Positions 6,118-58,482 of a DNA stretch of 64,000 bases are shown one piece after another. The stretch lies in IMG/VR virus record IMGVR_UViG_3300009594_000001; one strand, written 5' to 3'. The position numbers and the translations under genes are program-made. The notes below the pieces were generated by a model. That model made no database searches. It saw nothing but the letters and a program-made list of their open reading frames with translations, and was not told the origin of the DNA. The DNA is from a virus (lineage: Duplodnaviria > Heunggongvirae > Uroviricota > Caudoviricetes). Within the stretch, counting starts at the first letter, position 1; the number at the start of each line of letters is the position of its first letter.

Positions 6118-6543
6118 ATGAAGAAAGATGAAAGAGGAAAGGAGATGAAACATTGGTTTTTTAGCGACCCCCATTTCGGCCACGGCAACGGACGCATCTC
6201 TTTGTTGATGCCCTACTCGGTTGTCCAGAAAATCCGCTCTCAATACGGCAGGGATGGCAAGGTCATCCACAGGAAGGAACTGTGCAATGCAGAGGATATT
6301 CTCATCCAAATGCACCACGTTCGCAAACTTGCCGATCTGAGAAAACCGGGGCGAGGACCGAAGGAAGAGTGGCAGAAGATCATGGCGGCTCGTAAGCGAA
6401 AGATGCTGGCTGTGAGAAGTGCCATGTCAAAATCCACACCGGGAGATACGACGGACCTTCCTTGCATGGTCCACTGGAGAGCCGGGGGCAGTGAAAATTG
6501 CACGCCCGGTTCGGAGAGGGTAGCTGGAAAAGGTTCGTTGTAA
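6118..6543 (+). other. metallophosphoesterase N-terminal fragment (motif I DPHFGH) in a different frame from the rest of the domain
   Basis: FSDPHFGHGNG matches the calcineurin-like phosphoesterase motif I; the downstream ORF carries motifs II and III in another frame. Confidence 0.4.
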
Positions 6544-7034
6544 CACGGAACCTCGCTGGCTACCTACTCTACTGTCGTCGCACGAAGTACATGACGCCGA
6601 ATGAGATTCGGCTTCTAGATGAGGGTGCGAATTTCCATGTCAGTCGTGAGAGCGTCTGGCGTATGAATGATGCCATTATTGGTAACATCAACGCTTTGGT
6701 CCAGCCTGACGACGTTTTCTGGTGCTTGGGGGATTTCTGTTTTGTAGGAGGCAAGGATTACTACAGAGAGTCAGCCATCTATCGCAGTCGGATCAAATGT
6801 GCAACGATGCACATGGTCTGGGGAAACCACGATACGTCCAGCAAGATCGCCTCGTTGTTCAATACCAGTCATAAGATGGAAATGATTGCCATCAACCCGG
6901 AGAGCGGTCGTTACTACATCGATGAGGAGGTAATCAGGCCGTTCGGACTAGACGAGATCATTAAGATCATGCAGGCCAGACCGGGCTTCTGGATGGACTA
7001 CCACGGCAAACGAGGAAATCGTGACGAAGAGTGA
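6498..7034 (+). CDS. metallophosphoesterase domain protein (possibly disrupted)
   Basis: GDFCFVGG (GDxxDRG-like) and GNHD motifs. Motif I lies in the upstream ORF in another frame. Confidence 0.55.
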   Translation: MHARFGEGSWKRFVVTRNLAGYLLYCRRTKYMTPNEIRLLDEGANFHVSRESVWRMNDAIIGNINALVQPDDVFWCLGDFCFVGGKDYYRESAIYRSRIKCATMHMVWGNHDTSSKIASLFNTSHKMEMIAINPESGRYYIDEEVIRPFGLDEIIKIMQARPGFWMDYHGKRGNRDEE

Positions 7035-10356: not shown

Positions 10357-12282
10357 ATGTCCAAGAAGCTAGGTATGGGGAAGGGCCGTCATCACGAGGC
10401 CGTTACCCACGAGAAGGTCTACAGTGAGACTGTAGCCCACAAGCATGTTCCGGGCCGTGCGTACACCCACGACGACCCGACCGTGAAGCTCATCACCATG
10501 ATCGGTGGTGGGTTCTTCAACGAACCAAAGTATTACGACACCAACCGTCCGACTGTAGACTTCTACCGTGAACTGCGGGAGAAGGGCTGCATTTCGTCCG
10601 TCATCACGGACGCAATGGGTCTGTCCGAGCAGGCTCGTGAAGTCATTGAGACAGCACACAAGGTCGCTCAGGGTCCGAACCCGGAAGACCTACTCGTGAT
10701 CGCTGCCTGGGCACGAGACACCAAGAAGGGTCTCAAGCTGCGGTACACGCCGCAGATCATGCTCGCCCTGGCTGCGGCCAACGAGAAGACTAAGCCGTTC
10801 GTTCCTGTATACTCCACGGCTATCATCCAGCGTGCGGACGAAATCCGTAGTGTGTTCGCTGCGTTCCGTCATCTGTTCCACACGAAGGACACCGGCACTG
10901 GTCTGTACAAGGGCACGATCCCGCACTCTCTCCGTAAGGCTCTGGCTCTTGCCTTTGCCGAGGAGGGACTGTACGGCCTCATCAAGTACAACACCGACGA
11001 CCGCCCGACGTTCGGCGATGTACTGCTGATGCTTCGTGGCAGCGACATCGGGAAGTATCTGGAGAAGCGAATCGGCAAGAGCCGCCAGCACTGGCCGGTC
11101 AGCAAGTCCATGTTCGAGTACCTTGTCAACGGCAAGGTCGGCGAGGATGCTCCGAAGATGTTGAAGCTGCGTGAACAGTTCTTCAAGCTGAAGAAGGTCG
11201 AGGAAGTTACACCGAAACTCCTAGAGGGTGCCGGTTTGACCTGGGAAAACGTTATCTCTCATTTCGGCTCCACCAAAGAAGCCTGGGAGATGTGTATTCC
11301 GCTCATGGCGGAAATGGCCCTGGTCCGCAACCTCCGTAACTTCGAGAAGGTCAGTATCAGCAAGGATGCGTGGGATAAGGTACACGCCAAGTGTACTTCG
11401 ATCATGGACACCGAGCAGCTTCCGTTCCGCTTCTTCTCCGCTGAGAAGCAGGTTGGCAGCACGAATGCCAAGAGCGTCACGGACGCTATGCTGGACAACG
11501 CCTGCATGAACGTGCCGGACCTTCCGGGTGTGACTGTCATTTTCACCGACAACTCTGGCTCTGCTACCGGCTGTGCCGTTAGCGGTAAGAGCAAGATGCG
11601 TGTCGCTGACGCTGGCAACACCCTGGGTGCGATCATCGCCAAGCGGTTTGGCCGTAGGGCCATGATGGGTGTCTTCGGAGACTGCCTGATCTGGGTGCCG
11701 TTCAGCCCAAGCGACTCCTGCATGGCAATCAAGAAGTACATCGACCAGTGTGCCCAGAGCGGCGACCGTGGCAAGCTGAAGGCTCTTACCGTGATGAGCG
11801 GTAAGTACGATATCCTCACCGGGTCTAGCGGTCGCTACGGCGGCGGCGTCGGTGGTGGTACGGAGACGGGTCTGTGGTGCGGTATCCATGACCTTACCGA
11901 GAGGAAGGTCCATGTAGACCGTATCATCATCTGCTCCGACTTCTGCTGCTACACCAAGGGCGATGCTGTGAACTGTGGCCACGATATGACCCGTTGCTTC
12001 GGCGAGGGTGGTGACAAGGCCACGATTCAGAGCATGATCGAGAAGTACCGGAAGAAGGTCAACCCGAACTGCTGGGTCCACAGTATTGACCTACAGGGCT
12101 ATGGTCAGGCCCAGATCAAGTCGGGTTCCAAGAAGGCCCAGTTACTCAGCGGTTGGAGCGAGCAGGTGTTCACTCTGATCCGTGCAGTCGAACTCGGCGA
12201 CGAGCAGGTACAGCAGGTTCAGGGTGAGCCGGTCGAAGTTCCGACCATCGAATTGCTACGCAAGATGTACAAGCGGTCGTAG
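10357..12282 (+). CDS. rsr: Ro60-like protein (TROVE helical domain plus vWA domain)
   Basis: N-terminal helical region with Ro60-like motifs IGGGFFNEPKYY and QIMLALAAA. C-terminal vWA MIDAS motif VIFTDNSGSATG with downstream Thr and Asp (IIICSDF). 641 aa. Confidence 0.55.
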   Translation: MSKKLGMGKGRHHEAVTHEKVYSETVAHKHVPGRAYTHDDPTVKLITMIGGGFFNEPKYYDTNRPTVDFYRELREKGCISSVITDAMGLSEQAREVIETAHKVAQGPNPEDLLVIAAWARDTKKGLKLRYTPQIMLALAAANEKTKPFVPVYSTAIIQRADEIRSVFAAFRHLFHTKDTGTGLYKGTIPHSLRKALALAFAEEGLYGLIKYNTDDRPTFGDVLLMLRGSDIGKYLEKRIGKSRQHWPVSKSMFEYLVNGKVGEDAPKMLKLREQFFKLKKVEEVTPKLLEGAGLTWENVISHFGSTKEAWEMCIPLMAEMALVRNLRNFEKVSISKDAWDKVHAKCTSIMDTEQLPFRFFSAEKQVGSTNAKSVTDAMLDNACMNVPDLPGVTVIFTDNSGSATGCAVSGKSKMRVADAGNTLGAIIAKRFGRRAMMGVFGDCLIWVPFSPSDSCMAIKKYIDQCAQSGDRGKLKALTVMSGKYDILTGSSGRYGGGVGGGTETGLWCGIHDLTERKVHVDRIIICSDFCCYTKGDAVNCGHDMTRCFGEGGDKATIQSMIEKYRKKVNPNCWVHSIDLQGYGQAQIKSGSKKAQLLSGWSEQVFTLIRAVELGDEQVQQVQGEPVEVPTIELLRKMYKRS

Positions 12283-21696: not shown

Positions 21697-22113
21697 ATTT
21701 AGGTTTTTCGTCTAGGAGATTTGCCCCTCGTATAGAAAAAAGGCTCACTTGGTACGAGACTTGCTCAATTTTCAATTGGTGTTTGTTTACCCTGTTTCGA
21801 TGACGCCAGATAGAGGAGAACTCTAATGGCAACTATGGTTGCGAATCCCAGGAGGCGAAGTGAGGCACTTAGAACCGTCAAGGAGAAGCTGGCGGTTCTA
21901 CAAGGCATGTCAGACGAGATCGGTTCCAAGATGGTCATCGAGACCGCCATCGATGCCGTCGAGTCCACTATGGAAGCCGCCCTCTGCTGATGGGCAGTCG
22001 GCGTAACACGCATGGGAAATGAACTGTACAGCCGTCCCTGTGCAGACCATTCCTCGACCAGTCTGGCAACTTGACAACCAACCGGGACAAAGTGACGTGA
22101 TCGAAAAAAGGGG

Positions 22114-22142
22114 TTGACTCGGTTGGCCTCTCTTGCTAGAAT
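22114..22142 (+). promoter_or_regulatory. sigma-70-like promoter TTGACT-17-TAGAAT
   Basis: Upstream of the first tRNA cluster. Confidence 0.5.
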
Positions 22143-22165
22143 GTTTCTCGTCAGTTGATTGCTAG

Positions 22166-22258
22166 GCAGGTAGCTTAGTAGGCCGCAAGGTAGCTTGGAG
22201 TAGAGCGTCAGCCTAATAAGTTGAAGGTTGCTGGTGCGAATCCAGTCCTGCCCACTTA
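22166..22258 (+). ncRNA. tRNA-like element (93 nt, type and anticodon unresolved)
   Basis: Acceptor-like ggcaggt/cctgcc pairing, T-arm ctgg-tgcgaat-ccag, long D region; no clean anticodon arm. Confidence 0.35.
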
Positions 22259-22441
22259 AACGAGAACTGCCGTGGCCGCAAGGCGGAAAGGCAACCCTGG
22301 GAGCGAGTCTCCCGCTAACATCCAACCGGACTCATAAGGGGTAGCGGGGAATCCGGTTCACGGCGGAAAAATTCCGAAAAATGTCCTTTTTTGGGATTGC
22401 TCGTCTATATATTGGACAGGCAGAAATGCCGACATGACGTG

Positions 22442-22512
22442 GGGTGGTGTAATTGGTCAACATACGAGGCTCATAACCTCGTGATTCCAGGTTCGAGTCC
22501 TGGCCCCGCAAC
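22442..22512 (+). tRNA. tRNA-Met(CAT)
   Basis: AC arm cgagg-ctCATaa-cctcg; T arm ccagg-ttcgagt-cctgg; acceptor ccccgca. Confidence 0.7.
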
Positions 22513-22789
22513 TCAAGGACGCTAACAGCATTTTCCTACTACGGCAAAGAGATGGCGTCCGGGGGACAAGCGGTTAAGTCGCTAGTCTCATAAACAACAC
22601 CGGGCCGTGAGGCCCACAATGGAGGCAAGAAGAATACAATGGCTGTCCTGATTCAGAGACATGGGAAACAATGGTGCCGCTGCCATAAGCAGTGGAATAA
22701 CCAGATTACGTACCTCATGTCCTGATCGAGCAGCCAAAAGCCGGTTCAGGGCGTGAGTCCTGGGCCGGTGTCATAGGGAACTTGTAGAA

Positions 22790-22830
22790 CCCCTCGATAC
22801 CACTCAGCGGTATCGAGGGGTTTCTTTTTT
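22790..22830 (+). terminator. rho-independent terminator
   Basis: cccctcgatacc-actcagc-ggtatcgagggg followed by tttcttttttc. Confidence 0.7.
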
Positions 22831-23177
22831 CTACGAGGTATCCCTATGAGGATAGTGTCGGAGTTCAGGGACTACTACGATTGCATCCAGGCAATGGGCC
22901 AAGATCGGTCGTTAGTCTATGTGAAAATATCGAAGGAAGTGGATTGTAGTTACCGAGGCGTGAATTCGCCGGTTTACCCCTTCCCGACGTTCGGAGGTTA
23001 CTATAGGTTTCCTTACGATGACTTTTCGATCCCTACATGGCGTTCCAAGAGATTTCGATGTATCTGGGAGGATTAGCAGTTCCTCAGAAACCTATGCCGA
23101 AAATCTCCGACGAAGTGATGGCAGAGATCAAGGGATTCGATAAATGGAGCTTCCGAAAAGAACCCAGCAGGAAATGA

Positions 23178-23248
23178 TGTGGCGTCAGATAATGGTAATC
23201 GGCCTGCCTGTTAAACAGGAGATGTTGGTTCGATCCCAGCCGCCACAG
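23178..23248 (+). tRNA. tRNA-Asn(GTT)
   Basis: Acceptor tgtggcg/cgccaca; AC loop ctGTTaa; T arm gttgg-ttcgatc-ccagc. Confidence 0.6.
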
Positions 23249-23254
23249 CTTTAT

Positions 23255-23339
23255 TCCTGGGTAGCCTAAAGGTAAGGCAGCAGTCTGTTAAACTGCCGTG
23301 GCGAAAGTCCGAATGTTGGTTCGAGTCCAACCCCAGGAG
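23255..23339 (+). tRNA. type-II-like tRNA with anticodon GTT (Tyr-like scaffold, long variable arm)
   Basis: Acceptor tcctggg/cccagga; D gcct/aggc; AC gcagt-ctGTTaa-actgc; 18-nt variable region; T gttgg-ttcgagt-ccaac. Confidence 0.5.
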
Positions 23340-23356
23340 CTTGATAGGTTAGTTCT

Positions 23357-23385
23357 TTGACAATTAGGATCGCCAAAACTATAGT
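23357..23385 (+). promoter_or_regulatory. sigma-70-like promoter TTGACA-17-TATAGT
   Basis: Consensus -35 with 17-nt spacer, inside the tRNA cluster. Confidence 0.5.
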
Positions 23386-23410
23386 CGCCGCAAGGCAGTG
23401 GTGACTATAT

Positions 23411-23492
23411 GGGGTCGTGGCAGAATGGTTATGCACCCGGCTTTTAACCGGAGCGAGAAATCGCAATGAGGGTTCGATTCCTTCTGGCCCCA
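23411..23492 (+). tRNA. tRNA-Lys(TTT) with a 15-nt variable arm
   Basis: Acceptor ggggtcg/tggcccc; AC ccgg-ctTTTaa-ccgg; variable hairpin gcga-gaaa-tcgc; T gaggg-ttcgatt-ccttc. Confidence 0.5.
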
Positions 23493-23496
23493 CTTT

Positions 23497-23568
23497 CGGC
23501 TCATGTTGTAGTGGTCTGCGAACCGCTCTGATAAGGCGGGAGTCCTGGGCCGATTCCAGGTGAGCCGA
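23497..23568 (+). tRNA. tRNA-Ile(GAT), atypical T-loop
   Basis: Acceptor cggctca/tgagccg; AC ccgct-ctGATaa-ggcgg; T cctgg-gccgatt-ccagg (no TTC); weak D arm. Confidence 0.45.
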
Positions 23569-23576
23569 CTCCGAAT

Positions 23577-23649
23577 GGCCTGGTCGTTCAATGGTTAGGA
23601 CGCCGCTCTGATAAGGCGGTAATGAAGGTTCGACTCCTTCCTGGGCTAC
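23577..23649 (+). tRNA. tRNA-Ile(GAT)
   Basis: Same AC arm ccgct-ctGATaa-ggcgg; T gaagg-ttcgact-ccttc; acceptor contains G-U pairs. Confidence 0.5.
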
Positions 23650-23654
23650 TAGAT

Positions 23655-23730
23655 GGGCCTGTGTTGTAATGGCAGCGAGCCGGTCGGGCTTATGAGAGAA
23701 TGTTGGAAGAAGCGAAAAAGTGTGTCCTGC
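23655..23730 (+). ncRNA. tRNA-like fragment (D-arm gtgttgtaatggcagc, no T-arm)
   Basis: 5' half resembles the neighbouring tRNAs, but the 3' half lacks a T-loop. Confidence 0.25.
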
Positions 23731-23856
23731 TTTGTAACTGATGTCACACAGAGGTCACGCACGGCGTAGCGACACTGAACATTGGCGACACATGCCATCC
23801 GAACTAGTGTAGGGGAGTTGTGTGGCCTCTGGGGAGAGGCCCAGACCTTGAGATAT

Positions 23857-23928
23857 GGTGGTCGTGGTGTTGGTTTCGCACGCTTGGCTGTGAACCAAGA
23901 GGAATGGGTTCGATCCCCGTCGATCACC
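23857..23928 (+). tRNA. tRNA-His(GTG)
   Basis: G-1 present; acceptor gtggtcg/cgatcac; AC cttgg-ctGTGaa-ccaag; T atggg-ttcgatc-cccgt. Confidence 0.7.
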
Positions 23929-23932
23929 CTTG

Positions 23933-24005
23933 TAGTCGATGTGGTGTAATTGGCAGCATGGCCGTTGAGCGGAATTAGGTGCAGGTTCGAGTCCTGTCGC
24001 CCGGT
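23933..24005 (+). ncRNA. tRNA-like element B (D-arm and T-arm but no anticodon arm)
   Basis: gtggtgtaattggcagc D-arm; T gcagg-ttcgagt-cctgt; 3' acceptor cgcccgg has no 5' partner upstream. Confidence 0.35.
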
Positions 24006-24019
24006 CTAGACAACCAAAA

Positions 24020-24092
24020 CCGGGTGTGATGTAATGGCAGCACGGCCCCAGCGAAGGGGAAACAGGTCTGGGTTTGAGTCTCAGCGATCGAA
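24020..24092 (+). ncRNA. tRNA-like element C (D-arm and T-arm but no canonical anticodon arm)
   Basis: 5' ccgggtg pairs with the 3' cgcccgg of element B. D-arm gtgatgtaatggcagc; T ctggg-tttgagt-ctcag. Confidence 0.35.
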
Positions 24093-24221
24093 GATACGTG
24101 AGATAGATTGTGGCGTCGTCTAACACCCCGCCAGAATAGTCGAACAACTATGGGGTAAAAAGGATATCGGGGGCCAGATTAGCCCGGAGATGCAGGTGAA
24201 ACTCCTGTCCGTCACAGCCAT

Positions 24222-24294
24222 TGAGGGGTCGTCTAATTGGTAGGACGCTCGGCTTTGAACCGGGAAAATGAAGGTTCGACTCCTTCCCCCTCAG
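24222..24294 (+). tRNA. tRNA-Gln(TTG)
   Basis: Acceptor tgagggg/cccctca; AC ctcgg-ctTTGaa-ccggg; T gaagg-ttcgact-ccttc. Confidence 0.65.
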
Positions 24295-24317
24295 CTAGAC
24301 AGAATGGTGCAGACACC

Positions 24318-24388
24318 AGTTCCTTCGACCAAGTAGGTCAACATCCTGTTAAGATGTCCATTGTGGGTGTCAAATCCCACAGGAACAA
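24318..24388 (+). tRNA. tRNA-Asn(GTT)-like, atypical 8-nt T-loop
   Basis: AC acatc-ctGTTaa-gatgt; D gacc/ggtc; T gtggg-tgtcaaat-cccac; acceptor agttcct/aggaaca with one mismatch. Confidence 0.4.
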
Positions 24389-24418
24389 CCTGATGTCGAA
24401 TATCTCTTCTGTCTTTAC

Positions 24419-24491
24419 GGCCCCAAGGTGTTAGTGGCAGCATTCCACGCTCTTAACGTGCGGGGTCCGGGTTCAAGTCCCGGTGGGGCCA
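24419..24491 (+). tRNA. tRNA-Lys(CTT)
   Basis: Acceptor ggcccca/tggggcc; AC cacg-ctCTTaa-cgtg; T ccggg-ttcaagt-cccgg. Confidence 0.65.
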
Positions 24492-24582
24492 CTTTGCTCT
24501 AGAAAAACCTAGAGCCATCATCTATACTACTAGCACTACGACCAGTGGCTCGACCTGTTCCGCAAGAAGGAATGGATCGAGA

Positions 24583-25044
24583 ATGAATGCAACGAAACTG
24601 CTGTCCATAGGAAAGACAGCCGAAAGATTGGGAGTGCATGTTGATACTCTCAGGGAATGGGACAAAGACGGCAAACTGACCCCGGTGAAGACCCCCGGCA
24701 ACCATCGCCGCTACCGCATCGAAGACATCGAAGCGTTCTGCGGCAACATGGTTGAGAAGAAGGATGACGCAAAGGCAGTCAGAGTCGCCCAAGAAAAACC
24801 TCAAAATAAATTCAAGGATGTTTTGCATTTTGCCGATGATTACATTATAATACTTTGTCTGACTGTGGATACTCTACGATTTTGGCGGGACAAAGACGTA
24901 TTTGACCTGATTGGCACAATCGGAGGACACAACATTGATGAAGTTTTAGGTGTAATTAGTGAAAAGTCAAGTAAGGTGGACAGAGGACGAGGTAAATCTT
25001 CTCAAAGAACACGGAGCGACAAAACTCCTGCACGAACTGGTTGA
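24583..25044 (+). CDS. tnpA: IS607-family TnpA N-terminal MerR-like HTH segment (reading frame terminates before the catalytic domain)
   Basis: LLSIGKTAERLGVHVDTLREWDKDGKLTPVKTPGNHRRYRIEDIEAF matches the IS607 TnpA N-terminus from memory; it is followed by the intein block A-like CLTVDTLRF. Confidence 0.5.
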   Translation: MNATKLLSIGKTAERLGVHVDTLREWDKDGKLTPVKTPGNHRRYRIEDIEAFCGNMVEKKDDAKAVRVAQEKPQNKFKDVLHFADDYIIILCLTVDTLRFWRDKDVFDLIGTIGGHNIDEVLGVISEKSSKVDRGRGKSSQRTRSDKTPARTG

Positions 25045-25924
25045 GCTACTACCGAGACATACGGCAATGGGTATCTCGATCAAGAGAAAGCGGCTCGGCA
25101 TAGAACTGCCAGATGAATACCTGTCAAGGCAAGGAGCATACGGCAGGTCATTTGTAAATAATGACAACTTGTGTAAGACGGATCACAGCCTCACGCTAAA
25201 CGATCTTGATGATACGACCAAACAGGTTCTTCTTGGCAGCGTCTTAGGCGACGGCAGTATCAAGAAGAATGGAAGCGGTGGGAAGATGAGGGGCAAGTGG
25301 AGTCAAAGGAACTTCATCTTCTACGACATGCACAGAAGTCCACAATTTGACTACACGGACTGGAAGGCATCCAAACTCCAAACATTCTTAGCCAAGTCAA
25401 GCCGCAACGATGAGAAGAACAGGTCAGAGACTTGGACGGTATCGCATCCGATCTTCACCATGTTGCGTGATAAGTTTTATCCGGCGATGACGAAGTGTAA
25501 CAAGTGCATGATCCCCGCCGACATCGTTGAGCAGATGGATGAGTTGGCGTTGTTGGTGTGGTACTTTGATGACGGCTACATCGGTGTGCGTCCTGATGGA
25601 TTTGACACCAAAGGTCATCACAAACGACCGCAACCAAGAATTGCGGCAAAAGGTTGGAACTACGAAGACCTGTGCAGAGCCGCCGAGATACTGAACAAGA
25701 ACTTGGGGTTGCATCTGTACGTTCTTACATTCAAGCACAGGGACGGTGTTGGTAAAGAAGTCAAGATACCAGCAAAAGACAGGGATTACTTGTTTCAGCT
25801 TTGGCAGCAGTTGGCGAAACAACACGGCGTACCTGAGTGTATGATGTACAAACTGAACCTGCACGAATGGAAAGATGTACTTGTGTATAAGCAGCCACGA
25901 ACAGAAGCAGAAGGGCGACCTTGA
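24959..25924 (+). CDS. LAGLIDADG homing endonuclease (double-motif)
   Basis: Two dodecapeptide motifs, LLGSVLGDGSI and LLVWYFDDGYIG. Lies between the HTH and catalytic parts of tnpA, in a third frame. Confidence 0.7.
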   Translation: MKSQVRWTEDEVNLLKEHGATKLLHELVELLPRHTAMGISIKRKRLGIELPDEYLSRQGAYGRSFVNNDNLCKTDHSLTLNDLDDTTKQVLLGSVLGDGSIKKNGSGGKMRGKWSQRNFIFYDMHRSPQFDYTDWKASKLQTFLAKSSRNDEKNRSETWTVSHPIFTMLRDKFYPAMTKCNKCMIPADIVEQMDELALLVWYFDDGYIGVRPDGFDTKGHHKRPQPRIAAKGWNYEDLCRAAEILNKNLGLHLYVLTFKHRDGVGKEVKIPAKDRDYLFQLWQQLAKQHGVPECMMYKLNLHEWKDVLVYKQPRTEAEGRP

Positions 25925-26999
25925 GCGACAAAATGGGCGGGTTCTCGCCTACTGCGTCAAGAAACAGTACCAAGTAGTAAAATCCTACGAGGAAGTCGGC
26001 TCTGGCATGTGCGACACCCGACCAAAACTTCATCAAATCTTCAAGTTGGTTGAAGAGAAGCAGGTGGATAAGGTCATCGTAGAACACAAGGACCGGCTGA
26101 CCCGGTTCAACTTCAACTTTCTGGCAGCGTTCTTCGCCAGTCATGGTGTTGAGGTTGAATGGACAGAGGAAGTGCTTGGGAACAAGCGGTACGAGGACGA
26201 GTTAGTGGAAGACATGCTCACGCTCATGTCCTCGTTCTCAAACAAAATCTACGGCAAACGATCCGCAGAGAACCGCAAGAAGAAAAAGTTAGAGAAGTTG
26301 GCGGCAAAGGAGCAAGGTGAAGGTACAGAGGGGCTTCAAGACGGAGATCAGACCAAGCGACAAGCAAAAGACGCTGCTGCTCAAGAATGCAGGAGCGGCA
26401 CGCTGGGCGTACAACTACGGTCTGAGCCAGAAGAAGATCGCTCTGGAAGCCAAGACGAAGATACCCAACGCCATCGAACTGCACCGTCGCTTGAACGAGT
26501 TGAAGAAGACGGAAATACCGTGGGCTTACGAGTGCAGCAAGTGCAGTTTTCAAGAAGCACTCAGAAACCTCGACAGGGCTTTCAGCAACTTCTGGACAGC
26601 ACGGAAAACCAAGAGACGCATGGGCTTCCCGAAGTTCAAGAGCAAGAAGAACGGCATCGGCGGCTTCCGGCTCACAGGGACGATCATCGTGTCCAGCGAC
26701 CGCATCCAGTTGCCCCGTCTCGGCACGATCCGGCTCAAGGAGAAGAACTACCTGCCGACCGACGCCAAGATACTCAACGCCACGGTAACGGAGAGGGCTG
26801 GCAGGTGGTTCGTGAGCGTACTGGTGGAGATGGAACAGCCGGAATACACCGGCATCAAGGACAAGAAGGACGTGGTGGGCGTGGACTTGGGCATCAAGAC
26901 GCTGGCGACCGTGAGCGACGGCACGGTGTACGAGAACCCGAAACCACTCAAGACCCGATTACGCAAACTACGGCGGCTACAACGAGCAGTCGCCCGTAA
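25875..26999 (+). CDS. tnpA: IS607-family serine recombinase catalytic domain (TnpA C-terminal part; 3' end uncertain)
   Basis: YLCISSHEQKQKGDLERQ (cf. YARVSSxxQ...DLxRQ) and IVEHKDRLTRFNFNFL...GVEVEW. The frame stays open to 26999, overlapping tnpB out of frame; the true stop is probably near 26330. Confidence 0.55.
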   Translation: MYLCISSHEQKQKGDLERQNGRVLAYCVKKQYQVVKSYEEVGSGMCDTRPKLHQIFKLVEEKQVDKVIVEHKDRLTRFNFNFLAAFFASHGVEVEWTEEVLGNKRYEDELVEDMLTLMSSFSNKIYGKRSAENRKKKKLEKLAAKEQGEGTEGLQDGDQTKRQAKDAAAQECRSGTLGVQLRSEPEEDRSGSQDEDTQRHRTAPSLERVEEDGNTVGLRVQQVQFSRSTQKPRQGFQQLLDSTENQETHGLPEVQEQEERHRRLPAHRDDHRVQRPHPVAPSRHDPAQGEELPADRRQDTQRHGNGEGWQVVRERTGGDGTAGIHRHQGQEGRGGRGLGHQDAGDRERRHGVREPETTQDPITQTTAATTSSRP

Positions 27000-27456
27000 G
27001 GTCAAGGGCAGTAGAAACCGCAGGAAGGCGGCAGACCGTGTGGCTCGTTTGTACCTGAAAGTGAGCAACATCCGTAAGGACACCTTGCACAAGATGACGA
27101 CATGCTTGACGAAAACCAAGTCGGCGGTCGGTATCGAGGACTTGAACGTGTCGGGGATGCTCAGGAACAGGTGCTTGGCACGGTCTATCGCTGATCTCGG
27201 TCTTGGTGAATGGCGGCGGCAGATGACCTATAAGGGCGTCTGGTACAAGTGCCACATCGCCGTGGCGGACAGGTTCTTCGCCTCCAGCAAGACGTGTAGC
27301 GTCTGCGGGGAGATCAACGAGAACCTGACGCTGGCTGACCGAGAGTGGGTCTGTGAAGGTTGTGGGACGCACCATGACCGGGACTTCAACGCAAGCAGTA
27401 ATTTGGAATACGTTGCCGCCAGTTCGACGGAAACGATAAACGCCTGTGTAGTGTGA
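26317..27456 (+). CDS. tnpB: TnpB (IS605 OrfB family RuvC-like nuclease with zinc finger)
   Basis: 379 aa with the OrfB N-terminus (PSDKQKTLLLKNAGAARWAYNYGL), RuvC motifs (VVGVDLGIKTLAT; GIEDLNVSGM) and C-terminal zinc finger CSVCGE...CEGCG. Confidence 0.85.
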   Translation: MKVQRGFKTEIRPSDKQKTLLLKNAGAARWAYNYGLSQKKIALEAKTKIPNAIELHRRLNELKKTEIPWAYECSKCSFQEALRNLDRAFSNFWTARKTKRRMGFPKFKSKKNGIGGFRLTGTIIVSSDRIQLPRLGTIRLKEKNYLPTDAKILNATVTERAGRWFVSVLVEMEQPEYTGIKDKKDVVGVDLGIKTLATVSDGTVYENPKPLKTRLRKLRRLQRAVARKVKGSRNRRKAADRVARLYLKVSNIRKDTLHKMTTCLTKTKSAVGIEDLNVSGMLRNRCLARSIADLGLGEWRRQMTYKGVWYKCHIAVADRFFASSKTCSVCGEINENLTLADREWVCEGCGTHHDRDFNASSNLEYVAASSTETINACVV

Positions 27457-27601
27457 TGGCTCTGGCTTGAGGGCGTACCTCAAGTGAAACTGTTTCGTAT
27501 GCAGCAGGAATGGAACAGGAAATCGGGGTCATTTTGTGCCTTCCAGATTTCCATAGGTTTTCAGGAACGGTTCGACTCCCTACGGTCCCACTAGATGATA
27601 G

Positions 27602-27904
27602 GTGAATGAAATGAGTGAAGTACAAGACATATCGGTGAAGGCGAAAGGGGTCGAAGTCACCGATAGGCCGGAAGTTTTGGAGTGGCACAGTCAATTTTAT
27701 TTTGTCGCTGCCGCTCGAAAAGATGGATCGGCACCCGGCCTTGAGAAAGCTGTAGAGGCGAAGTTTTTCCTCGATCCAGACGAAGCCGAGATGTTCCGGC
27801 GAACCGTCAGCGAGGAATACGATTACCAATACAGAGTGTTTGAAGGCGTTGCGGTGATTCAGCGGTTCCAGAACCGAGGAGACACAAGCAAGGTAGAAGA
27901 GTGA
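27602..27904 (+). CDS. hypothetical protein (100 aa)
   Basis: ORF. Confidence 0.4.
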   Translation: MNEMSEVQDISVKAKGVEVTDRPEVLEWHSQFYFVAAARKDGSAPGLEKAVEAKFFLDPDEAEMFRRTVSEEYDYQYRVFEGVAVIQRFQNRGDTSKVEE

Positions 27905-27908
27905 AGGA

Positions 27909-27977
27909 TGCCCTCTGGTGTAATGGCAGCACATCTGACTTTGGATCAGATAGTTCACGTTCGAGTTGTGGGAGGGC
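27909..27977 (+). tRNA. tRNA-Gln(TTG)
   Basis: Acceptor gccctct/ggagggc; D-arm gtgtaatggcagcaca; AC tctga-ctTTGga-tcaga; T cacg-ttcgagt-tgtg. Confidence 0.55.
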
Positions 27978-28115
27978 AGCTTGCAAAGAGCGGATAGTAA
28001 CGATGGCATGGGTGAACTGTCACCAGATATTACTCCCAAAAGGCCCGCTCCGAGTCGGGGAAGTGGATTACCAGCCCTGGTGCCTTAGCCCCGATGGGTG
28101 TGACCGAGGGTAGAT

Positions 28116-28196
28116 GCTGGGTATGCTAAACGGTGTTATAGTTGCCGGTTGTAGCCTCTATCCGGTTGTGTTGGTTCAACTCCAACCACGCCCACT
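28116..28196 (+). ncRNA. tRNA-like element (T-arm gttgg-ttcaact-ccaac; anticodon arm unresolved)
   Basis: Acceptor-like tgggtat/acgccca pairing; the ccgg...ccgg stem encloses a 13-nt loop. Confidence 0.3.
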
Positions 28197-28276
28197 ATGG
28201 AAATCTTTTTCGTCATTTGCGTAATTGGTTTGTTTTGTTGGATAGTTGTCGTTGCAGCCGAGATTTTGACATGAAA

Positions 28277-28346
28277 TGGCCCGTTCGCTGGATGCGGAGT
28301 CCGGTCTTCTAAACCAGACGGGAGAGGTTCGATTCCTCTACGGGCT
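28277..28346 (+). tRNA. tRNA-Arg(TCT)
   Basis: Acceptor ggcccgt/acgggct; AC ccggt-ctTCTaa-accag (one mismatch); T agagg-ttcgatt-cctct. Confidence 0.5.
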
Positions 28347-28535
28347 ACTTGCGGGCCGTGAGTGTGACGGAAGCACGCAACGCTTCGGACGTTGAAGAAA
28401 GGGTTGGCGTGTCTGGGTCTGTTAGGTGTCATCATCTGGCAGGCTAATCACTGGTATCAGGCAAGGCACACGCTTTGCCCGACTAGCAACATGTACTGCT
28501 GTCCGAAATGCGGCTGGGACGCATATGTGTAGTTA

Positions 28536-28606
28536 TTGACCCCTAGTGTAACGGTAGCACAAGTGACTCTGGATCACTTAGTCAAGGTCCGAATCCTTGG
28601 GGGTCA
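28536..28606 (+). tRNA. tRNA-Gln(CTG)
   Basis: Acceptor tgacccc/ggggtca; AC agtga-ctCTGga-tcact; T caagg-tccgaat-ccttg. Confidence 0.55.
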
Positions 28607-28608
28607 GC

Positions 28609-28723
28609 TTGGGACATAGTGTAAGCGAGAAGCTGTCGTTGTGTATGATTCTAGATGAAAGCAACGGCTGGTAGCACGAGTCTATACGAAGGGCTTAGTT
28701 TGGGTTCGAGTCCCAATGTCCCA
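28609..28723 (+). ncRNA. 115-nt tRNA-like element with ~40-nt insertion in the D region
   Basis: Perfect acceptor tgggaca/tgtccca and T-arm ttggg-ttcgagt-cccaa. The D-loop motif ggtagcac is displaced by an extra segment; no clear anticodon arm. Confidence 0.35.
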
Positions 28724-28730
28724 ACTTAGA

Positions 28731-28803
28731 TGGTGTGGGTAGCTTAATGGCAAAGCATCTGCTTGTGAGGTAGAAAGATGCCGGTTCGAGTCCGGTCCCA
28801 CAC
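28731..28803 (+). tRNA. tRNA-His(GTG)
   Basis: G-1 present; acceptor gtgtggg/cccacac; D gctt/aagc; AC tctgc-ttGTGag-gtaga; T gccgg-ttcgagt-ccggt. Confidence 0.6.
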
Positions 28804-28993
28804 CCTTATGAAACTGCAAGAAATGAGACATCTATTTAAGGAGTTCGGAAGGACGCTCGGCAAACATCCTGACGAGTGGTGGGGTTTTGAGCAGGCGGTA
28901 TGGCATGAATTGTCGAAAAAGTTTACCATATGGTTAAGCAAGAACCGGGACGAGCTAGAAAAGCTCCGAGAGAAGGACAAGTACGTTGTATAA

Positions 28994-29065
28994 GGCCATG
29001 TAGCCAAGTGGTAAGGCATGGGTCTGCAAAATCCATCATCGTGGGTTCGACCCCCACCGTGGTTT
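28994..29065 (+). tRNA. tRNA-Cys(GCA)
   Basis: AC tgggt-ctGCAaa-atcca; T gtggg-ttcgacc-cccac; acceptor ggccatg/cgtggtt with three G-U pairs. Confidence 0.55.
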
Positions 29066-29126
29066 CTAGAGACGCTAACAGCATTTTCTAACAACCTTCC
29101 AAGTTGACGAAATAGCGTCTCGTTTT

Positions 29127-29204
29127 GTCGATGGAGGCGAAAGCATCGGGGCGGTGCATTGGTCTGCAAAACCAACGCCAAGTGGTTCAACTCTACCCAT
29201 CGAC
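29127..29204 (+). tRNA. tRNA-Cys(GCA)-like with an extra GNRA mini-hairpin between acceptor and D-arm
   Basis: Perfect acceptor gtcgatg/catcgac; AC ttggt-ctGCAaa-accaa; extra gcgaaagc segment; short T-stem. Confidence 0.45.
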
Positions 29205-29226
29205 TTTTCATTTTAGGAGACCGATC

Positions 29227-29400
29227 ATGTGGGGCGTAAACAAGAAGGCGATCCTAGTTGAGACAAGCGATTACTACAGCGAGGACGATACGCCTTCGGT
29301 CTGTACTACGGTGATCGAGTCGCTATCCGATTTGGCGACCTGCCTGGGTAATGACTTGGCGGGAGATCATCATGCGATGGAGGCCCTGCTGAAGAACTAG
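29227..29400 (+). CDS. hypothetical small protein (57 aa)
   Basis: RBS aggag 7 nt upstream of ATG 29227; the track ORF 29125..29400 overlaps the tRNA. Confidence 0.4.
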   Translation: MWGVNKKAILVETSDYYSEDDTPSVCTTVIESLSDLATCLGNDLAGDHHAMEALLKN

Positions 29401-29451
29401 CACTTCCTCAAGGCCCTGGACCAACGTGGTTTTCGTGACGTAGAGAAGATC

Positions 29452-29760
29452 GTGTCTGCCGTTGAGAAGGTGAAGGCCGGAACTAGGTTCTTCATGTACA
29501 ACGGCGAGAGCTACCCTTCGATTCGTGAGATCGACATCTTCAACAAGGACCGCTATGTTGCTGAACAGCTTGCGGACGTGGAGAAGTCCTCGCTCAAGGA
29601 GATCAATGGGACGGCATATCGATACGTGCTGGCCGCTCGCAAGAGAATCGATGCTGCGAGCAAGGCAAGAGCAGCCAAGGCGAAGAATTGCCAAAAGAAG
29701 CTTAAGAAAAAGGAACTAGAGAAGGCCAGAGAGTTATTGAAGGAAGCTGGTGAGTTATGA
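29452..29760 (+). CDS. hypothetical protein (102 aa), Lys/Ala-rich C-terminus
   Basis: ORF. Confidence 0.4.
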   Translation: MSAVEKVKAGTRFFMYNGESYPSIREIDIFNKDRYVAEQLADVEKSSLKEINGTAYRYVLAARKRIDAASKARAAKAKNCQKKLKKKELEKARELLKEAGEL

Positions 29761-30302
29761 ATGACAAGTTGACTATGACCGAACTAGAACAGAAAGAGGC
29801 CAGACTTCAGGAGCTATACAACCTATCTGACAAAATCAACGAAGAAGTGACCGAACTCAATCAACAGCTTTACAGCCTAAGATTGAAGAGGTTGCTTGAG
29901 ACCGATTTGCTGAGTCGCATTGATTGGCTCTATACTTACGATCTAGCTCTCAGAGGCGAAGAGGCTGCTGGGATTGGCGATTTGCTCAAGCCGTGGGGCT
30001 ACCACGACCGATTTGAGGGCGAAGAGTGGAGTCTGAGTTTTGACGATGGCGAGATCAGGCTGGGATTCGGCGAGGCAGAATTCATGGCTGACTTCATCAA
30101 GGCCCAGAAACTCAAGGTGAATTTTAAGGGTTTGCAGAGCGAACTGAAGCAGAAGGAGACCGAGTACCATAAGGTGAAGGAACTTGCCGAAACGCTCGGA
30201 ATACTCGATGGCAAAGAAGATAACGAAGCAGCAGGAAATTCGCCACGAGGAGCAGTACGTCGAGTTCCTGCGGAAGCGTCTTGGGTCATAGATAAATCAT
30301 GA
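29757..30302 (+). CDS. hypothetical protein (181 aa), coiled-coil N-terminus
   Basis: ORF; start overlaps the previous stop (ATGA). Confidence 0.45.
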   Translation: MNDKLTMTELEQKEARLQELYNLSDKINEEVTELNQQLYSLRLKRLLETDLLSRIDWLYTYDLALRGEEAAGIGDLLKPWGYHDRFEGEEWSLSFDDGEIRLGFGEAEFMADFIKAQKLKVNFKGLQSELKQKETEYHKVKELAETLGILDGKEDNEAAGNSPRGAVRRVPAEASWVIDKS

Positions 30303-43166: not shown

Positions 43167-43172
43167 CTCGCC

Positions 43173-55932: not shown

Positions 55933-55933
55933 C

Positions 55934-58481: not shown

Positions 58482-58482
58482 C

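Follow-up and report, generated by a model that had tools for sequence, protein, structure and literature searches.

The window, by which we mean the whole stretch of 64,000 nucleotides of viral DNA that was analyzed, carries a tRNA array that spans approximately 42 kb and has all of its 43 to 47 tRNAs, as found with ARAGORN and Rfam, on the plus strand. Among the tRNAs lie small ORFs and mobile-element genes, and a Pfam scan recognized homing-endonuclease, IS605 TnpB and phage-like genes; the window thus holds what characterizes a tRNA array unit, namely dozens of tRNA genes on one strand of a phage or mobile element. The array and the features considered here are as follows:

22184 to 63798, plus strand: tRNA array, with 43 ARAGORN tRNAs and 4 weak matches seen with Rfam only
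23178 to 23249, plus strand: ordinary class I tRNA-Asn(GUU), directly 5' of the long-arm tRNA-Asn and also with U1-A72 and G73
23255 to 23339, plus strand: tRNA-Asn(GUU) with an extra arm (ARAGORN; Rfam, 60.6 bits; RNAfold)
23297 to 23314, plus strand: 18-nt variable region of this tRNA-Asn, made of CG(T)GGC, GAAA (23303 to 23306) and GTCCG, with the 3-nt linker AAT
23411 to 23492, plus strand: tRNA-Lys(UUU) with an extra arm (ARAGORN; Rfam, 50.8 bits; RNAfold)
23453 to 23467, plus strand: 15-nt variable region of this tRNA-Lys, made of GCGA, GAAA (23457 to 23460) and TCGC, with the linker AAT
63709 to 63798, plus strand: tRNA-Ile(UAU) in which two hairpins separate the D arm from the T arm (ARAGORN; Rfam, 56.4 bits; RNAfold)
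63751 to 63773, plus strand: second hairpin of this tRNA-Ile, made of the linker TCA, the stem strands GTCC (63754 to 63757) and GGAC (63765 to 63768), and the linker GAAAT

The 43 ARAGORN tRNAs and the 4 weak Rfam matches of the window include no anticodon for Leu, Ser, Tyr or Trp, in agreement with the first-pass annotation, which had noticed the lack of ordinary Leu, Ser and Tyr tRNAs. Neither aminoacyl-tRNA synthetase nor tRNA-repair domains were found in the 40 window ORFs scanned against Pfam. A blastn comparison of positions 22000-29900 with the INPHARED phages returned short tRNA matches only and no close relative; one window protein has relatives on IMG/VR contigs, and a contig search with two window proteins retrieved no record. 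A fourth long tRNA, with anticodon AAA, lies at 52824-52904, and its 14-nt variable region forms no convincing hairpin.

In textbooks, only Leu, Ser, Tyr and Sec tRNAs have long variable arms. The three tRNAs of interest nevertheless fold into five-arm cloverleaves with other anticodons according to ARAGORN, the Rfam tRNA model and RNAfold alike. ARAGORN places them at 23255-23340 (Asn(gtt), 86 nt), 23411-23493 (Lys(ttt), 83 nt) and 63709-63798 (Ile(tat), 90 nt). Their scores against RF00005, which cover model positions 1-71, all exceed the gathering threshold of 29 bits with a complete cloverleaf, and the alignments put GUU, UUU and UAU at the anticodon and treat 15-20 additional nt as inserted into the variable region. 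Moreover, the minimum free energy structure is the five-arm cloverleaf in each case, with RNAfold z-scores of -3.4 (Asn), -1.75 (Lys) and -3.3 (Ile). The acceptor stem has 7 bp, the T stem 5 bp, the 8-9 linker 2 nt, and the D loop, of 7-9 nt, contains GG; in the Asn and Ile copies, the D stem is canonical, with 4 bp and a loop of 7 nt. The variable regions measure 18 nt (Asn), 15 nt (Lys) and 23 nt (Ile) and all form hairpins, which confirms the stems proposed at first sight and corrects the sizes given then (15-21 nt). Each tRNA therefore has, like class II tRNAs, a variable arm that exceeds 10 nt and forms a stem, but the three predictors assign GUU, UUU and UAU rather than a Leu, Ser or Tyr anticodon. 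The anticodon loops read earlier (ctGTTaa, ctTTTaa and ctTATaa) recur in the predictions, and the three programs concur, with no sign of other folds bearing standard Leu, Ser or Tyr anticodons, or of sequence that is not tRNA.

The three designs recur across phage and bacterial arrays and are not specific to one lineage. Pattern scans of viral sequences in IMG/VR for the three designs, in which exact CTNNNAA and GGTTCGANTCC motifs were required, found at least 111 long-arm tRNA-Asn, at least 91 tRNA-Lys and at least 80 tRNA-Ile, and arms related to that of the window tRNA-Asn, cgtggcgaaagccccatc and cgtggagaaatcccaatc, were found in the IMG/VR loci L083 and L120. In bacterial genomes, ARAGORN confirmed a long-arm tRNA-Ile in approximately 100 of 120 among the matches listed, and these copies lie mostly, among the same matches, inside arrays with 10-38 tRNAs per 8 kb; such arrays are the setting of nearly all related loci, as of the window. 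Long-arm tRNAs are also already present in cultured phages: Aeh1 has an annotated 85-nt tRNA-Asn with a long arm, while PhiM1 (43.8 kb), where the gene lies between capsid and tail genes, and Vibrio phage WD615 have an annotated 98-nt tRNA-Ile with the loop CAGATAA. Annotation pipelines overlook or mislabel such genes: ARAGORN failed on the two 98-nt copies, and the KP13-26 copy is unannotated. In sets not selected for long arms, long-arm forms make up approximately 5-6% of phage tRNA-Asn and tRNA-Lys. Approximately half of the phage tRNA-Ile(UAU) lack the extra arm, which is thus not obligatory, and extra arms occur sporadically across many isotypes. The first-pass annotation had offered unusual isoacceptors of this lineage as one possibility; the isoacceptor part is borne out by the isotype marks described below, but the restriction to a lineage does not hold in view of the unrelated phages and bacterial arrays.

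In the window tRNA-Ile, which has a 7/5 acceptor/T branch, a canonical D arm, C4-G69 and A73, the first of the two hairpins holds the loop CTTATAA, with TAT at 63741-63743. The second closes a 7-nt loop, CAGATAA (63758-63764), with GAT at 63760-63762, which is identical, save for A at the U33 position, to CUGAUAA, the anticodon loop of E. coli tRNA-Ile(GAU). Among the matches listed, 79 of 92 distinct Ile(UAU) relatives center GAT in a 7-nt loop with the consensus Y-A-G-A-U-N-R, in which GAU is the major Ile anticodon, and these loops sit on 37 distinct stems; the position equivalent to 33 is A in 70 of these 79, and that equivalent to 37 is U, G or C, and not A, in 66. In the same matches, 98.8% pairing was found in the helix, where each of the three pairs counted shows compensatory changes, and the loop motif is conserved about as well as the anticodon and T loops. 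Moreover, the equivalent of the C29-G41 pair is present in 74% of the hairpin 2 stems, against 13% of the true anticodon stems in these tRNAs (among the matches listed), 44% of class I tRNA-Ile(GAU) and 11% of all other tRNAs; the window hairpin 2 itself has U29-A41, and C-G stands at 29-41 in the real anticodon stem (cacga/tcgtg). A cognate triplet in the second loop is peculiar to Ile(UAU) among the isotypes compared: in Asn, Lys, Thr, Met and the other isotypes nothing systematic and isolated cases only were found, and long-arm tRNA-Ile(GAU) have plain short arms, several of them GAAA-capped, without the GAU loop. A triloop formed by A33-U37 pairing was considered and rejected, as A33 stays A whatever the base at 37 and the two positions hence do not covary. 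The strict A at this position is also not accounted for by the idea that any base other than U would do. The 'long-arm Ile(AAU)' of two Blastocatellia arrays was set aside, since its anticodon loop is poor and it lacks the GAU hairpin.

In E. coli, the identity elements of tRNA-Ile are G34 or L34, A35, U36, t6A37, A38, A73, C4-G69, C29-G41 and U12-A23. The window tRNA has A73, C4-G69, A35, U36, A37 and A38, with U at position 34, and E. coli IleRS is described as charging a UAU tRNA poorly unless the W905R change is present (PMC3575796). Based on the conservation of the second loop, we infer that hairpin 2 may act as an anticodon-arm mimic, giving IleRS identity to a UAU tRNA. It would show G-A-U-(N)-A, usually with C29-G41, to the host IleRS, these being identity elements of the tRNA-Ile(GAU) anticodon arm; the A at '33' and the usually non-A '37' would stop it from decoding, and the real UAU loop would read AUA. 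The outcome would be a portable decoder of AUA, independent of TilS/lysidine and of any IleRS adapted to UAU. In the standard class II geometry, the variable arm falls short of the anticodon-binding site of the synthetase, so that such a mimic requires alternative stacking; at the three-way junction, the D stem could have either hairpin as its stacking partner.

The same features could be thought to belong to tRNA-like molecules that do not translate, serving as decoys or sponges for the tRNA-cleaving defence nucleases of the host or for modification enzymes, or as regulatory RNAs. Arrays have been discussed as anti-defence devices (PMC10264068, PMC11555353, PMC12803027), a regulatory-RNA role was suggested earlier for the acidobacterial allo-tRNA(UAU), and the second anticodon-like loop might be bait. 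In addition, six allo-tRNA(UAU) variants were reported to be inactive in an E. coli Ser-reporter assay (Mukai et al., PMC5389517), but this assay reads Ser insertion, so that an Ile-inserting tRNA would appear inactive in it. We consider this explanation unlikely, as the features needed in translation are intact (7/5 branch, canonical T loop, U33/A37 loop and isotype-matched discriminators), and as the position of the PhiM1 gene between capsid and tail genes suits codon supply better than bait.

It could likewise be proposed that the tRNA-Ile decodes through its GAU hairpin, with the UAU hairpin as the insertion, or that both decode, together covering AUA, AUC and AUU. The frequent C29-G41 pair of hairpin 2 fits such a role, as do the 4-6 nt that follow this hairpin, which resemble a class I variable loop (gaggt, aaat), and in locus L113 the order is reversed, with GAU first and a UUUAUAA loop second. 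Yet the near-universal U33 is replaced by A and A37 is usually missing in hairpin 2, at the frequencies given above, and this combination should disable both decoding and t6A37 formation. Hairpin 1, on the other hand, has a perfect C-U-UAU-A-A loop at the canonical 1-nt spacing from the D stem, and UAU is placed as the anticodon by ARAGORN, the Rfam model and RNAfold, which makes decoding through GAU quite improbable.

The reading that we prefer, in which the tRNAs are genuine isoacceptors for the amino acids named by their anticodons, was then weighed on the acceptor marks. tRNA-Asn identity in E. coli consists of the GUU anticodon and G73, and U1-A72 is typical of bacterial tRNA-Asn. The window copy has all three, with GTT at 23287-23289, the discriminator G73 at 23339 and, in a 7-bp acceptor stem, U1-A72 followed by C2-G71 and C3-G70, along with a 4-bp D stem and a 5-bp T stem. 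It departs from tRNA-Ser, with which it shares G73, in having C2-G71, C3-G70 and 3 unpaired nt on the 3' side of the arm, and from tRNA-Tyr at G73 and U1-A72. Among the matches listed, G73 is present in 104 of 111 long-arm tRNA-Asn and U1-A72 in 77, and in the short-arm comparison set the counts are 34/37 and 19/37, respectively. A73, seen in 51 of 51 tRNA-Tyr, is not the mark of long-arm tRNA-Asn, and the pairs G2-C71 and A3-U70, nearly always present in tRNA-Ser, are not conserved there either. Moreover, long-arm tRNAs of other isotypes keep their own marks, namely U73 in Cys, C73 in His, A73 in Ile, and G1-C72 and C2-G71 in Thr. Bacterial tRNA-Tyr is identified by A73, G1-C72 and the anticodon GUA, with U35 as the strongest element, and has a 3-bp arm with 3 unpaired 3' nt. 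The window tRNA-Lys, which has a 3-bp D stem, carries the Lys identity elements, UUU with U35 and U36 (TTT at 23443-23445) and A73 (at 23492); it shares A73, G1-C72, U35 and a Tyr-like arm with tRNA-Tyr, but its anticodon is UUU and not GUA.

A cross-validated classifier blind to the anticodon, trained on phage tRNAs labelled by anticodon, reached an accuracy of 72% overall and recovered 93% of Ser and 89% of Leu tRNAs, with 54% for Asn and 45% for Ile. It assigned the window Asn copy to Asn, 7 bits ahead of the next class, and the Lys copy to Lys, with Tyr as runner-up 4.3 bits behind, so that some mischarging is possible in silico; the Ile copy was assigned to Arg and not to Ile, the result for this copy being ambiguous. 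Among 110 long-arm tRNA-Asn in the matches listed, the best class was Asn for 51, Gln for 34 and Tyr for 5, and neither Ser nor Leu was among the five commonest calls.

The arms were also compared. In Asn, Lys and Thr, the stem of 3-4 bp is flanked by about 1 nt 5' and about 3 unpaired nt 3', which is the geometry of phage tRNA-Tyr and gives some substance to the earlier remark that GTT is one base away from the Tyr anticodon. Ser arms have 5-7 bp and 1 unpaired 3' nt and Leu arms 2 such nt, against 3-4 in the long-arm variants. Since MAFFT misaligned the variable arms of long-arm tRNA-Asn, no pair counts were taken from that alignment, and folding energies were compared with those of shuffles instead: among the matches listed, 73% of 105 distinct Asn arms fold at -2 kcal/mol or below, against 16% of shuffles. 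In Asn and Lys, the arm is a short hairpin with a GNRA cap, and its stem varies in sequence but keeps its pairing potential.

These results bear on the proposal that class II scaffolds have been given new anticodons and are still charged by SerRS, LeuRS or TyrRS, so that AAY, AAA and AUA would be mistranslated, as by the nev-tRNAs. The long variable arm is indeed a hallmark of Ser, Leu and Tyr tRNAs, the G73 of the window tRNA-Asn is a Ser mark as well, and the Tyr-like traits and Tyr runner-up score of the tRNA-Lys point the same way; a precedent exists in nev-tRNA-Ile(UAU), which is charged with Leu only (PMC3333845). Nevertheless, the acceptor and discriminator marks track the isotype implied by the anticodon and not Ser or Tyr, the classifier rarely prefers Tyr for long-arm tRNA-Asn and has neither Ser nor Leu among its five most frequent calls for them, the arms differ from those of Ser and Leu in pairing and anchoring, and the window Asn and Ile D stems are canonical. 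The nearest relatives within a locus are not class II tRNAs, with no nearest-neighbor signal of recent descent from a class II tRNA of the same phage. We thus hold this proposal to be very unlikely, and the retargeted Leu, Ser or Tyr scaffolds offered as one option by the first-pass annotation are not supported; the inspection of identity elements that it had recommended gave discriminators and acceptor pairs that match Asn, Lys and Ile. Judged by their sequences, the three tRNAs look like unusual Asn, Lys and Ile isoacceptors rather than Leu, Ser or Tyr tRNAs with new anticodons.

As isoacceptors, the tRNAs of this phage-type array would decode AAY as Asn, AAA and AAG as Lys, and AUA as Ile. 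The Asn and Lys arm would be a generic hairpin of 3-5 bp, mostly GNRA-capped, placed where class II arms sit. Its small length and its orientation appear to set it apart from the Ser arm of 5-7 bp, and the cognate class IIb synthetases probably tolerate the hairpin. The arm might perhaps alter the shape of these tRNAs so that host tRNA-targeting factors or phage factors discriminate them from host tRNA, an idea that we put forward with little confidence. The anticodon nucleases PrrC and colicin E5 accept isolated anticodon stem-loops, and an escape through a change of shape is hence weakly motivated for Asn and Lys.

That the arms are chance insertions or DNA palindromes in decaying or neutral copies of a fast-evolving, redundant array seems highly improbable. 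Several tRNAs of the array are indeed weak or odd, long-arm forms are in the minority among Asn and Lys, and extra arms turn up sporadically in many isotypes. Nevertheless, the hairpin is kept in hundreds of diverged copies with varied pairing stems, preferred GNRA caps and fixed linkers, the Ile loop motif is conserved about as well as the anticodon and T loops, and the three window genes score 50-60 bits with intact stems.

Altogether, the explanation that we find probable is that these are genuine Asn, Lys and Ile elongator tRNAs that have acquired a fifth arm, which in Ile would mimic an anticodon arm. More tentatively, and with rather less than even confidence, the tRNA-Ile(UAU) may be two-headed, with its identity split from its decoding, and the arms of Asn, Lys, Thr and other tRNAs may express the same tendency towards a fifth arm, marking array tRNAs against those of the host. 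Contrary to the textbook restriction, the extra arm recurs in array tRNAs for Asn, Lys, Ile and other amino acids and appears to be under selection. If the Ile arm does act as a mimic for IleRS, it would be, to our knowledge, the first natural tRNA with a synthetase-recognition triplet outside the decoding loop. It would then account for the provision of AUA decoding by mobile elements in hosts with an IleRS that rejects UAU, and would offer a design principle for engineering orthogonal or anticodon-independent tRNAs.

Among known systems, bacterial class II tRNAs likewise have a stem-loop inserted between positions 45 and 46 of a 7/5 cloverleaf, but the window tRNAs differ from them by the anticodons GUU, UUU and UAU and by the discriminators and acceptor pairs of Asn, Lys and Ile, and Ser and Leu arms are longer and anchored differently. 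The nematode nev-tRNAs, which are descendants of tRNA-Leu that accept Leu alone (Hamashima et al. 2012, PMC3333845), are also V-arm tRNAs with anticodons, UAU included, of neither Leu nor Ser. However, they are eukaryotic nuclear genes, whereas the long-arm tRNAs described here belong to phage and bacterial arrays and do not have class II-like bodies, with no Leu-like body detected by the classifier or among within-locus neighbors, and their Ile arm carries what appears to be an Ile-type anticodon mimic.

Closer in setting are the allo-tRNAs (Mukai et al. 2017, PMC5389517), which are defined by an acceptor/T branch of 8/4 or 9/3 and are for the most part of Ser or Ala identity. They share with the present tRNAs a long V-arm or five-stem junction, UAU as their commonest anticodon, and an occurrence in Acidobacteria and phage tRNA clusters. 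The window tRNAs differ from them in their 7/5 branch, in D stems of 4 bp (Asn and Ile) or 3 bp (Lys) in place of a long D stem with a tetraloop, and in their discriminators, A73 in two and G73 in Asn. In some relatives, a 4-bp D stem closed by a tetraloop goes with an anticodon stem of 7 bp, and an overlap with the allo-tRNA set may thus exist; the main text of Mukai et al. (PMC5389517) makes no mention of a GAU loop. The tRNA arrays of phages, mycobacteria and plasmids contain dozens of tRNAs unlike the chromosomal copies, among them tRNA-Ile(TAT) and short-arm tRNA-Leu (PMC6582537, PMC12803027), and the window is a dense tRNA cluster of the same sort. These two reports describe neither long-arm Asn or Lys nor a GAU-bearing arm in Ile(UAU), and long-arm Asn or Lys phage tRNAs and the GAU-bearing arm were likewise absent from the limited literature collection searched. 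Finally, the 'Ile3' tRNA-Ile(UAU) of Mycoplasma mobile, Bifidobacterium and Neorickettsia reads AUA without TilS (PMC3575796, PMC8450103), and the window tRNA-Ile has the same unmodified-type UAU anticodon. In M. mobile, the synthetase is the adapted partner, through Arg865 of IleRS (PMC3575796), whereas the tRNA-Ile(UAU) described here bears an added GAU hairpin instead; as a mobile element is unable to change the IleRS of its host, this hairpin may be read as a solution on the tRNA side.

ARAGORN located 43 tRNA genes in the window, between 22438 and 63798 and every one on the + strand, among them three long ones with an extra arm in the variable region:

23255-23340 (+), long tRNA-Asn(gtt); variable region 18 nt, hairpin CG(U)GGC-GAAA-GUCCG, 3' linker AAU
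23411-23493 (+), long tRNA-Lys(ttt); variable region 15 nt, hairpin GCGA-GAAA-UCGC, 3' linker AAU
63709-63798 (+), long tRNA-Ile(tat); variable region 23 nt, UCA-GUCC-CAGAUAA-GGAC-GAAAU

ARAGORN draws all three as five-arm cloverleaves, and RNAfold independently yields identical structures, with an acceptor stem of 7 bp and a T stem of 5 bp in each. The Rfam tRNA model scores them at 60.6 (Asn), 50.8 (Lys) and 56.4 (Ile) bits (threshold 29), with GUU, UUU and UAU as the aligned anticodons and the additional 15-20 nt as a variable-region insertion; all segments and coordinates were verified base by base. No Leu, Ser or Tyr anticodon was found in the window, either among the ARAGORN tRNAs or among four weaker Rfam-only hits. 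Because predictors, base-by-base check and absent anticodons agree, the first-pass annotation described these tRNAs correctly and the observation is real; the three anticodons, the lack of Leu, Ser and Tyr tRNAs and the variable-region hairpins all stand, the measured lengths reaching 23 nt rather than staying within the 15-21 nt claimed.

The window appears to belong to a large phage genome. Among the Pfam matches of its ORFs are an NAD-dependent ligase and a sigma factor, and relatives of one window protein, 32-34% identical, lie on IMG/VR contigs of 68-239 kb; a blastn search of the INPHARED phage collection with 22000-29900 gave short tRNA matches but no close relative. Other genes of the window are:

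10357-12282 (+), Ro60/TROVE-domain protein (Pfam), about 10 kb upstream of the tRNA array
24959-25924 (+), LAGLIDADG endonuclease, within the array
25875-26999 (+), serine-recombinase/resolvase-domain ORF, within the array
26317-27456 (+), IS605-family TnpB/Cas12f-like ORF, within the array
52982-55090 (+), MoxR-type AAA ATPase split by an intein (Hint and LAGLIDADG domains)

Rfam detected no Y RNA near the Ro60/TROVE gene, and DUF58, VWA and BatA-like genes (55087-60334) come after the MoxR ATPase. An Rfam group II intron match (domain V/VI, 56.3 bits) at 6477-6572 (+) overlaps the start of an ORF (6498-7034) with a weak metallophosphatase match. As for the other tRNAs, an 81-nt gene called Phe(AAA) at 52824-52904 (+) is a fourth long tRNA for an A/U-rich codon and may be degenerate. 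It has A34, the anticodon loop TTAAAGT and 14 nt of variable region (TGCCGCACGAAGAT), and it showed neither a convincing variable-region hairpin nor a clean RNAfold cloverleaf (z = -1.0). The 71-nt class I tRNA at 48693-48763 (+), labelled 'SeC' by ARAGORN, has the anticodon UCA, predicted to read the opal codon, three acceptor mismatches (G1.A72, U3.U70, U4.U69) and an Rfam score of 41.3 bits; it could be either a suppressor or a copy in decay. At 43096-43167 (+), right after a Gly(GCC) gene, lies a tRNA-Gly with anticodon ACC, its A34 being uncommon in bacteria and phages. The four weak Rfam-only matches (22184-22254, 43586-43650, 44282-44358 and 45484-45558, all +; 33-42 bits, broken stems), with anticodons AAT, GAA, TCC and CAT at a relaxed ARAGORN threshold, are probably pseudo-tRNAs within the array.

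IMG/VR was scanned for a GGTTCGANTCC T loop preceded, at a distance of 19-32 (or 19-36) nt, by each of the anticodon loops, and ARAGORN confirmed at least 111 long-arm Asn(GTT), at least 91 Lys(TTT) and at least 80 Ile(TAT) tRNAs. Such genes are also present in cultured phages: Aeromonas phage Aeh1 carries an annotated 85-nt tRNA-Asn(GUU), Pectobacterium phage PhiM1 (a 43.8-kb autographivirus) a 98-nt tRNA-Ile between capsid and tail genes, Vibrio phage WD615 a 98-nt tRNA-Ile and Klebsiella phage KP13-26 an unannotated long-arm tRNA-Ile; the second loop is CAGATAA in all these Ile copies, and ARAGORN misses these longest versions. A bacterial scan of one genome per species (pattern CTTATAA-N10-18-AGAT-N12-17-GGTTCGANTCC) gave at least 120 matches. 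Nearly all of those listed are the same two-hairpin Ile(UAU) tRNA, very frequent in Acidobacteriota (Pyrinomonadaceae, Blastocatellia, Bryobacterales, Terriglobia) and present also in Rhodobacterales, Azoarcus, Pasteurellaceae, Acidithiobacillus and others, and most lie in arrays of 10-38 tRNAs per 8 kb. In loci not selected for the isotype concerned, the long arm occurs in 3 of 66 Asn(GTT), 6 of 93 Lys(TTT), 25 of 106 Thr(TGT) and 21 of 43 Ile(TAT) tRNAs. Overall, the window genes are members of a five-arm Asn/Lys/Ile class that is widespread in the tRNA arrays of phages and bacteria; no published description of it was found in the literature searched. The suggestion that they are unusual isoacceptors of this lineage survives as regards their design, but not as regards the lineage, given their spread across phage and bacterial arrays.

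The 111 long-arm Asn tRNAs among the matches listed contain 105 distinct variable-region sequences, and 73% of long-arm Asn arms fold at -2 kcal/mol or better, versus 16% after shuffling; a similar excess is seen for the Lys and Ile sets and for true class II tRNAs. Judged from sequence, the extra arms are selected structures and not accidents. Their geometry compares with that of class II arms as follows:

Geometry of variable-region arms
Ser: stem 5-7 bp, 1 unpaired 3' nt
Leu: stem 3-5 bp, 2 unpaired 3' nt
Tyr: stem 3 bp, 3 unpaired 3' nt
Long-arm Asn, Lys and Thr: stem 3-4 bp, 3-4 unpaired 3' nt

The Asn, Lys and Thr arms, mostly GNRA-capped, are Tyr-like because of their 3-4 bp stem, about 1 unpaired 5' nt and 3-4 nt on the 3' side, although the tRNA bodies differ from Tyr; Ser and Leu arms differ in stem length and 3' linker. 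The opposite anomaly was also observed among the IMG/VR and genome loci L001-L476: in phage arrays, roughly one in three of the examined Leu tRNAs (TAA, TAG, CAA) has a short variable loop of class I type, as likewise noted in a mycobacterial array (PMC6582537), and many Leu tRNAs of bacterial arrays are just 75-78 nt. Three loci (L007, L033, L120) contain several initiator-like Met/fMet tRNAs with a 1:72 mismatch (C1 opposite A72 or U72) and a common 17-18-nt variable region, (g)gacaga(a/t)aatgcttgt, that forms no stable stem.

The first-pass annotation had also proposed Leu, Ser or Tyr scaffolds retargeted by new anticodons, against which identity marks, classifier calls and nearest relatives all speak. 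Inspection of identity elements, suggested there as a test of such an origin, found the Asn-type G73 in 104 of the 111 long-arm Asn tRNAs listed, versus an invariable A73 in the phage Tyr tRNAs examined, and U1-A72 in 77; they resemble the short-arm Asn tRNAs of the same loci. In the phage Ser tRNAs examined, G2-C71 and A3-U70 are nearly universal. Long-arm tRNAs of other isotypes retain U73 (Cys), C73 (His), G1-C72/C2-G71 (Thr) and A73 (Ile). A position-specific naive-Bayes classifier, blind to anticodon and variable region, was trained exclusively on canonical phage tRNAs, with cross-validation by locus (accuracy 72% overall, 93% for Ser, 89% for Leu). Of 110 listed long-arm Asn tRNAs it scored 51 best as Asn, 34 as Gln (U1-A72 and G73 are common to Gln and Asn) and 5 as Tyr, with Ser and Leu outside the five commonest calls. 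The window Asn copy is classed as Asn, whereas the call for the Ile copy is ambiguous, a result shared by many ordinary Ile tRNAs. For most long-arm tRNAs the nearest same-locus relative lies outside class II, and the closest cross-locus relatives of the three window genes are, among the matches listed, mostly same-anticodon long-arm tRNAs (72-76% identity). The window Lys copy has Lys as top class and Tyr as runner-up at 4.3 bits less, and may be partly tyrosylated. The proposed mistranslation is unsupported on this sequence comparison, because long-arm bodies are not Tyr-like and the arms are unlike those of Ser and Leu.

In the Asn and Lys tRNAs the arm resembles a generic, stable hairpin exactly at the class II arm site, and nothing in the sequences points to a specific partner. 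The D arms lean slightly towards class II, with commoner 3-bp stems and larger loops. Known anticodon nucleases such as PrrC and colicin E5 act on the anticodon stem-loop alone. An arm that reshapes the tRNA could conceivably assist Asn and Lys tRNAs in counter-defence, a weak proposal because those nucleases need only that stem-loop; tRNA arrays have been discussed as counter-defence against tRNA-cleaving systems (PMC10264068, PMC11555353, PMC12803027).

The most interesting part, and a directly testable one, is the GAU-bearing arm of tRNA-Ile(UAU), here hairpin 2, hairpin 1 being the true anticodon arm. A 7-nt loop with GAT at its centre, on a stem of 3 bp or more, occurs in 79 of the 92 distinct long-arm Ile(TAT) tRNAs among the matches listed; these 79 have 37 different stems, and their commonest loop is CAGAUUA (CAGAUAA in the window). 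In an 82-sequence alignment the loop G, A and U are each at least 90% conserved, level with the anticodon and T loops, and the three loop-proximal pairs are 98.8% paired with compensatory changes at each; covariation for the whole structure (all four helices) scores 0.854, while shuffling gives 0.183 and sliding the partners no more than 0.196. C29-G41 is a known IleRS identity element in E. coli; the equivalent pair was counted as follows:

Frequency of C29-G41
Long-arm Ile(UAU) tRNAs, hairpin 2: 74%
Those tRNAs, true anticodon stem: 13%
Class I Ile(GAU): 44%
All other tRNAs: 11%

The window copy has U29-A41 and so only part of the identity set. Numbered as an anticodon arm, hairpin 2 has A at '33' in 70 of the 79, U at '37' in 51 and A at '38' in 56, and A at '33' with non-A at '37' would block decoding by it. 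A systematic cognate triplet in the second loop is absent from isotypes other than Ile(UAU); long-arm Ile(GAU) tRNAs have plain short arms, several GAAA-capped, without a GAU loop. We hypothesise that hairpin 2 is an anticodon-arm mimic presenting the GAU identity set, so that the UAU loop would read AUA while hairpin 2 would provide identity. The 3' linker of hairpin 2, 4-6 nt long, is class I variable loop-like. Three helices meet at the junction: hairpin 1 begins 1 nt beyond the D stem, and hairpin 2 follows about 2 nt later, with about 5 nt behind it, so either hairpin could stack on the D stem. Two other two-headed tRNAs were observed: an Ile(GAU) with second loop TTTATAA (UAU; L113:2416-2500), and a 96-nt 'Met(CAU)' with CTTGTAA (Thr UGU; L451:2608-2703), which may be a fusion of neighbouring genes. 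A tRNA-Glu(UUC) on an Aeromonas phage phiAS5 contig (L035:2681-2777) has a 26-nt variable region forming a hairpin whose loop, CTTTCAC, matches that of its own anticodon arm, as if this arm had been duplicated in tandem.

Taniguchi et al. (PMC3575796) showed that E. coli IleRS charges tRNA-Ile(UAU) inefficiently, the answer of M. mobile being an altered enzyme. Mukai et al. (PMC5389517) reported an abundant five-stem-junction 'allo-tRNA(UAU)' in Acidobacteria, the role of which in translation was doubted. The window Ile tRNA falls outside the allo-tRNA definition because it has a 7/5 branch with a canonical D arm; some of its tetraloop-D-arm relatives may overlap the allo-tRNA(UAU) set.
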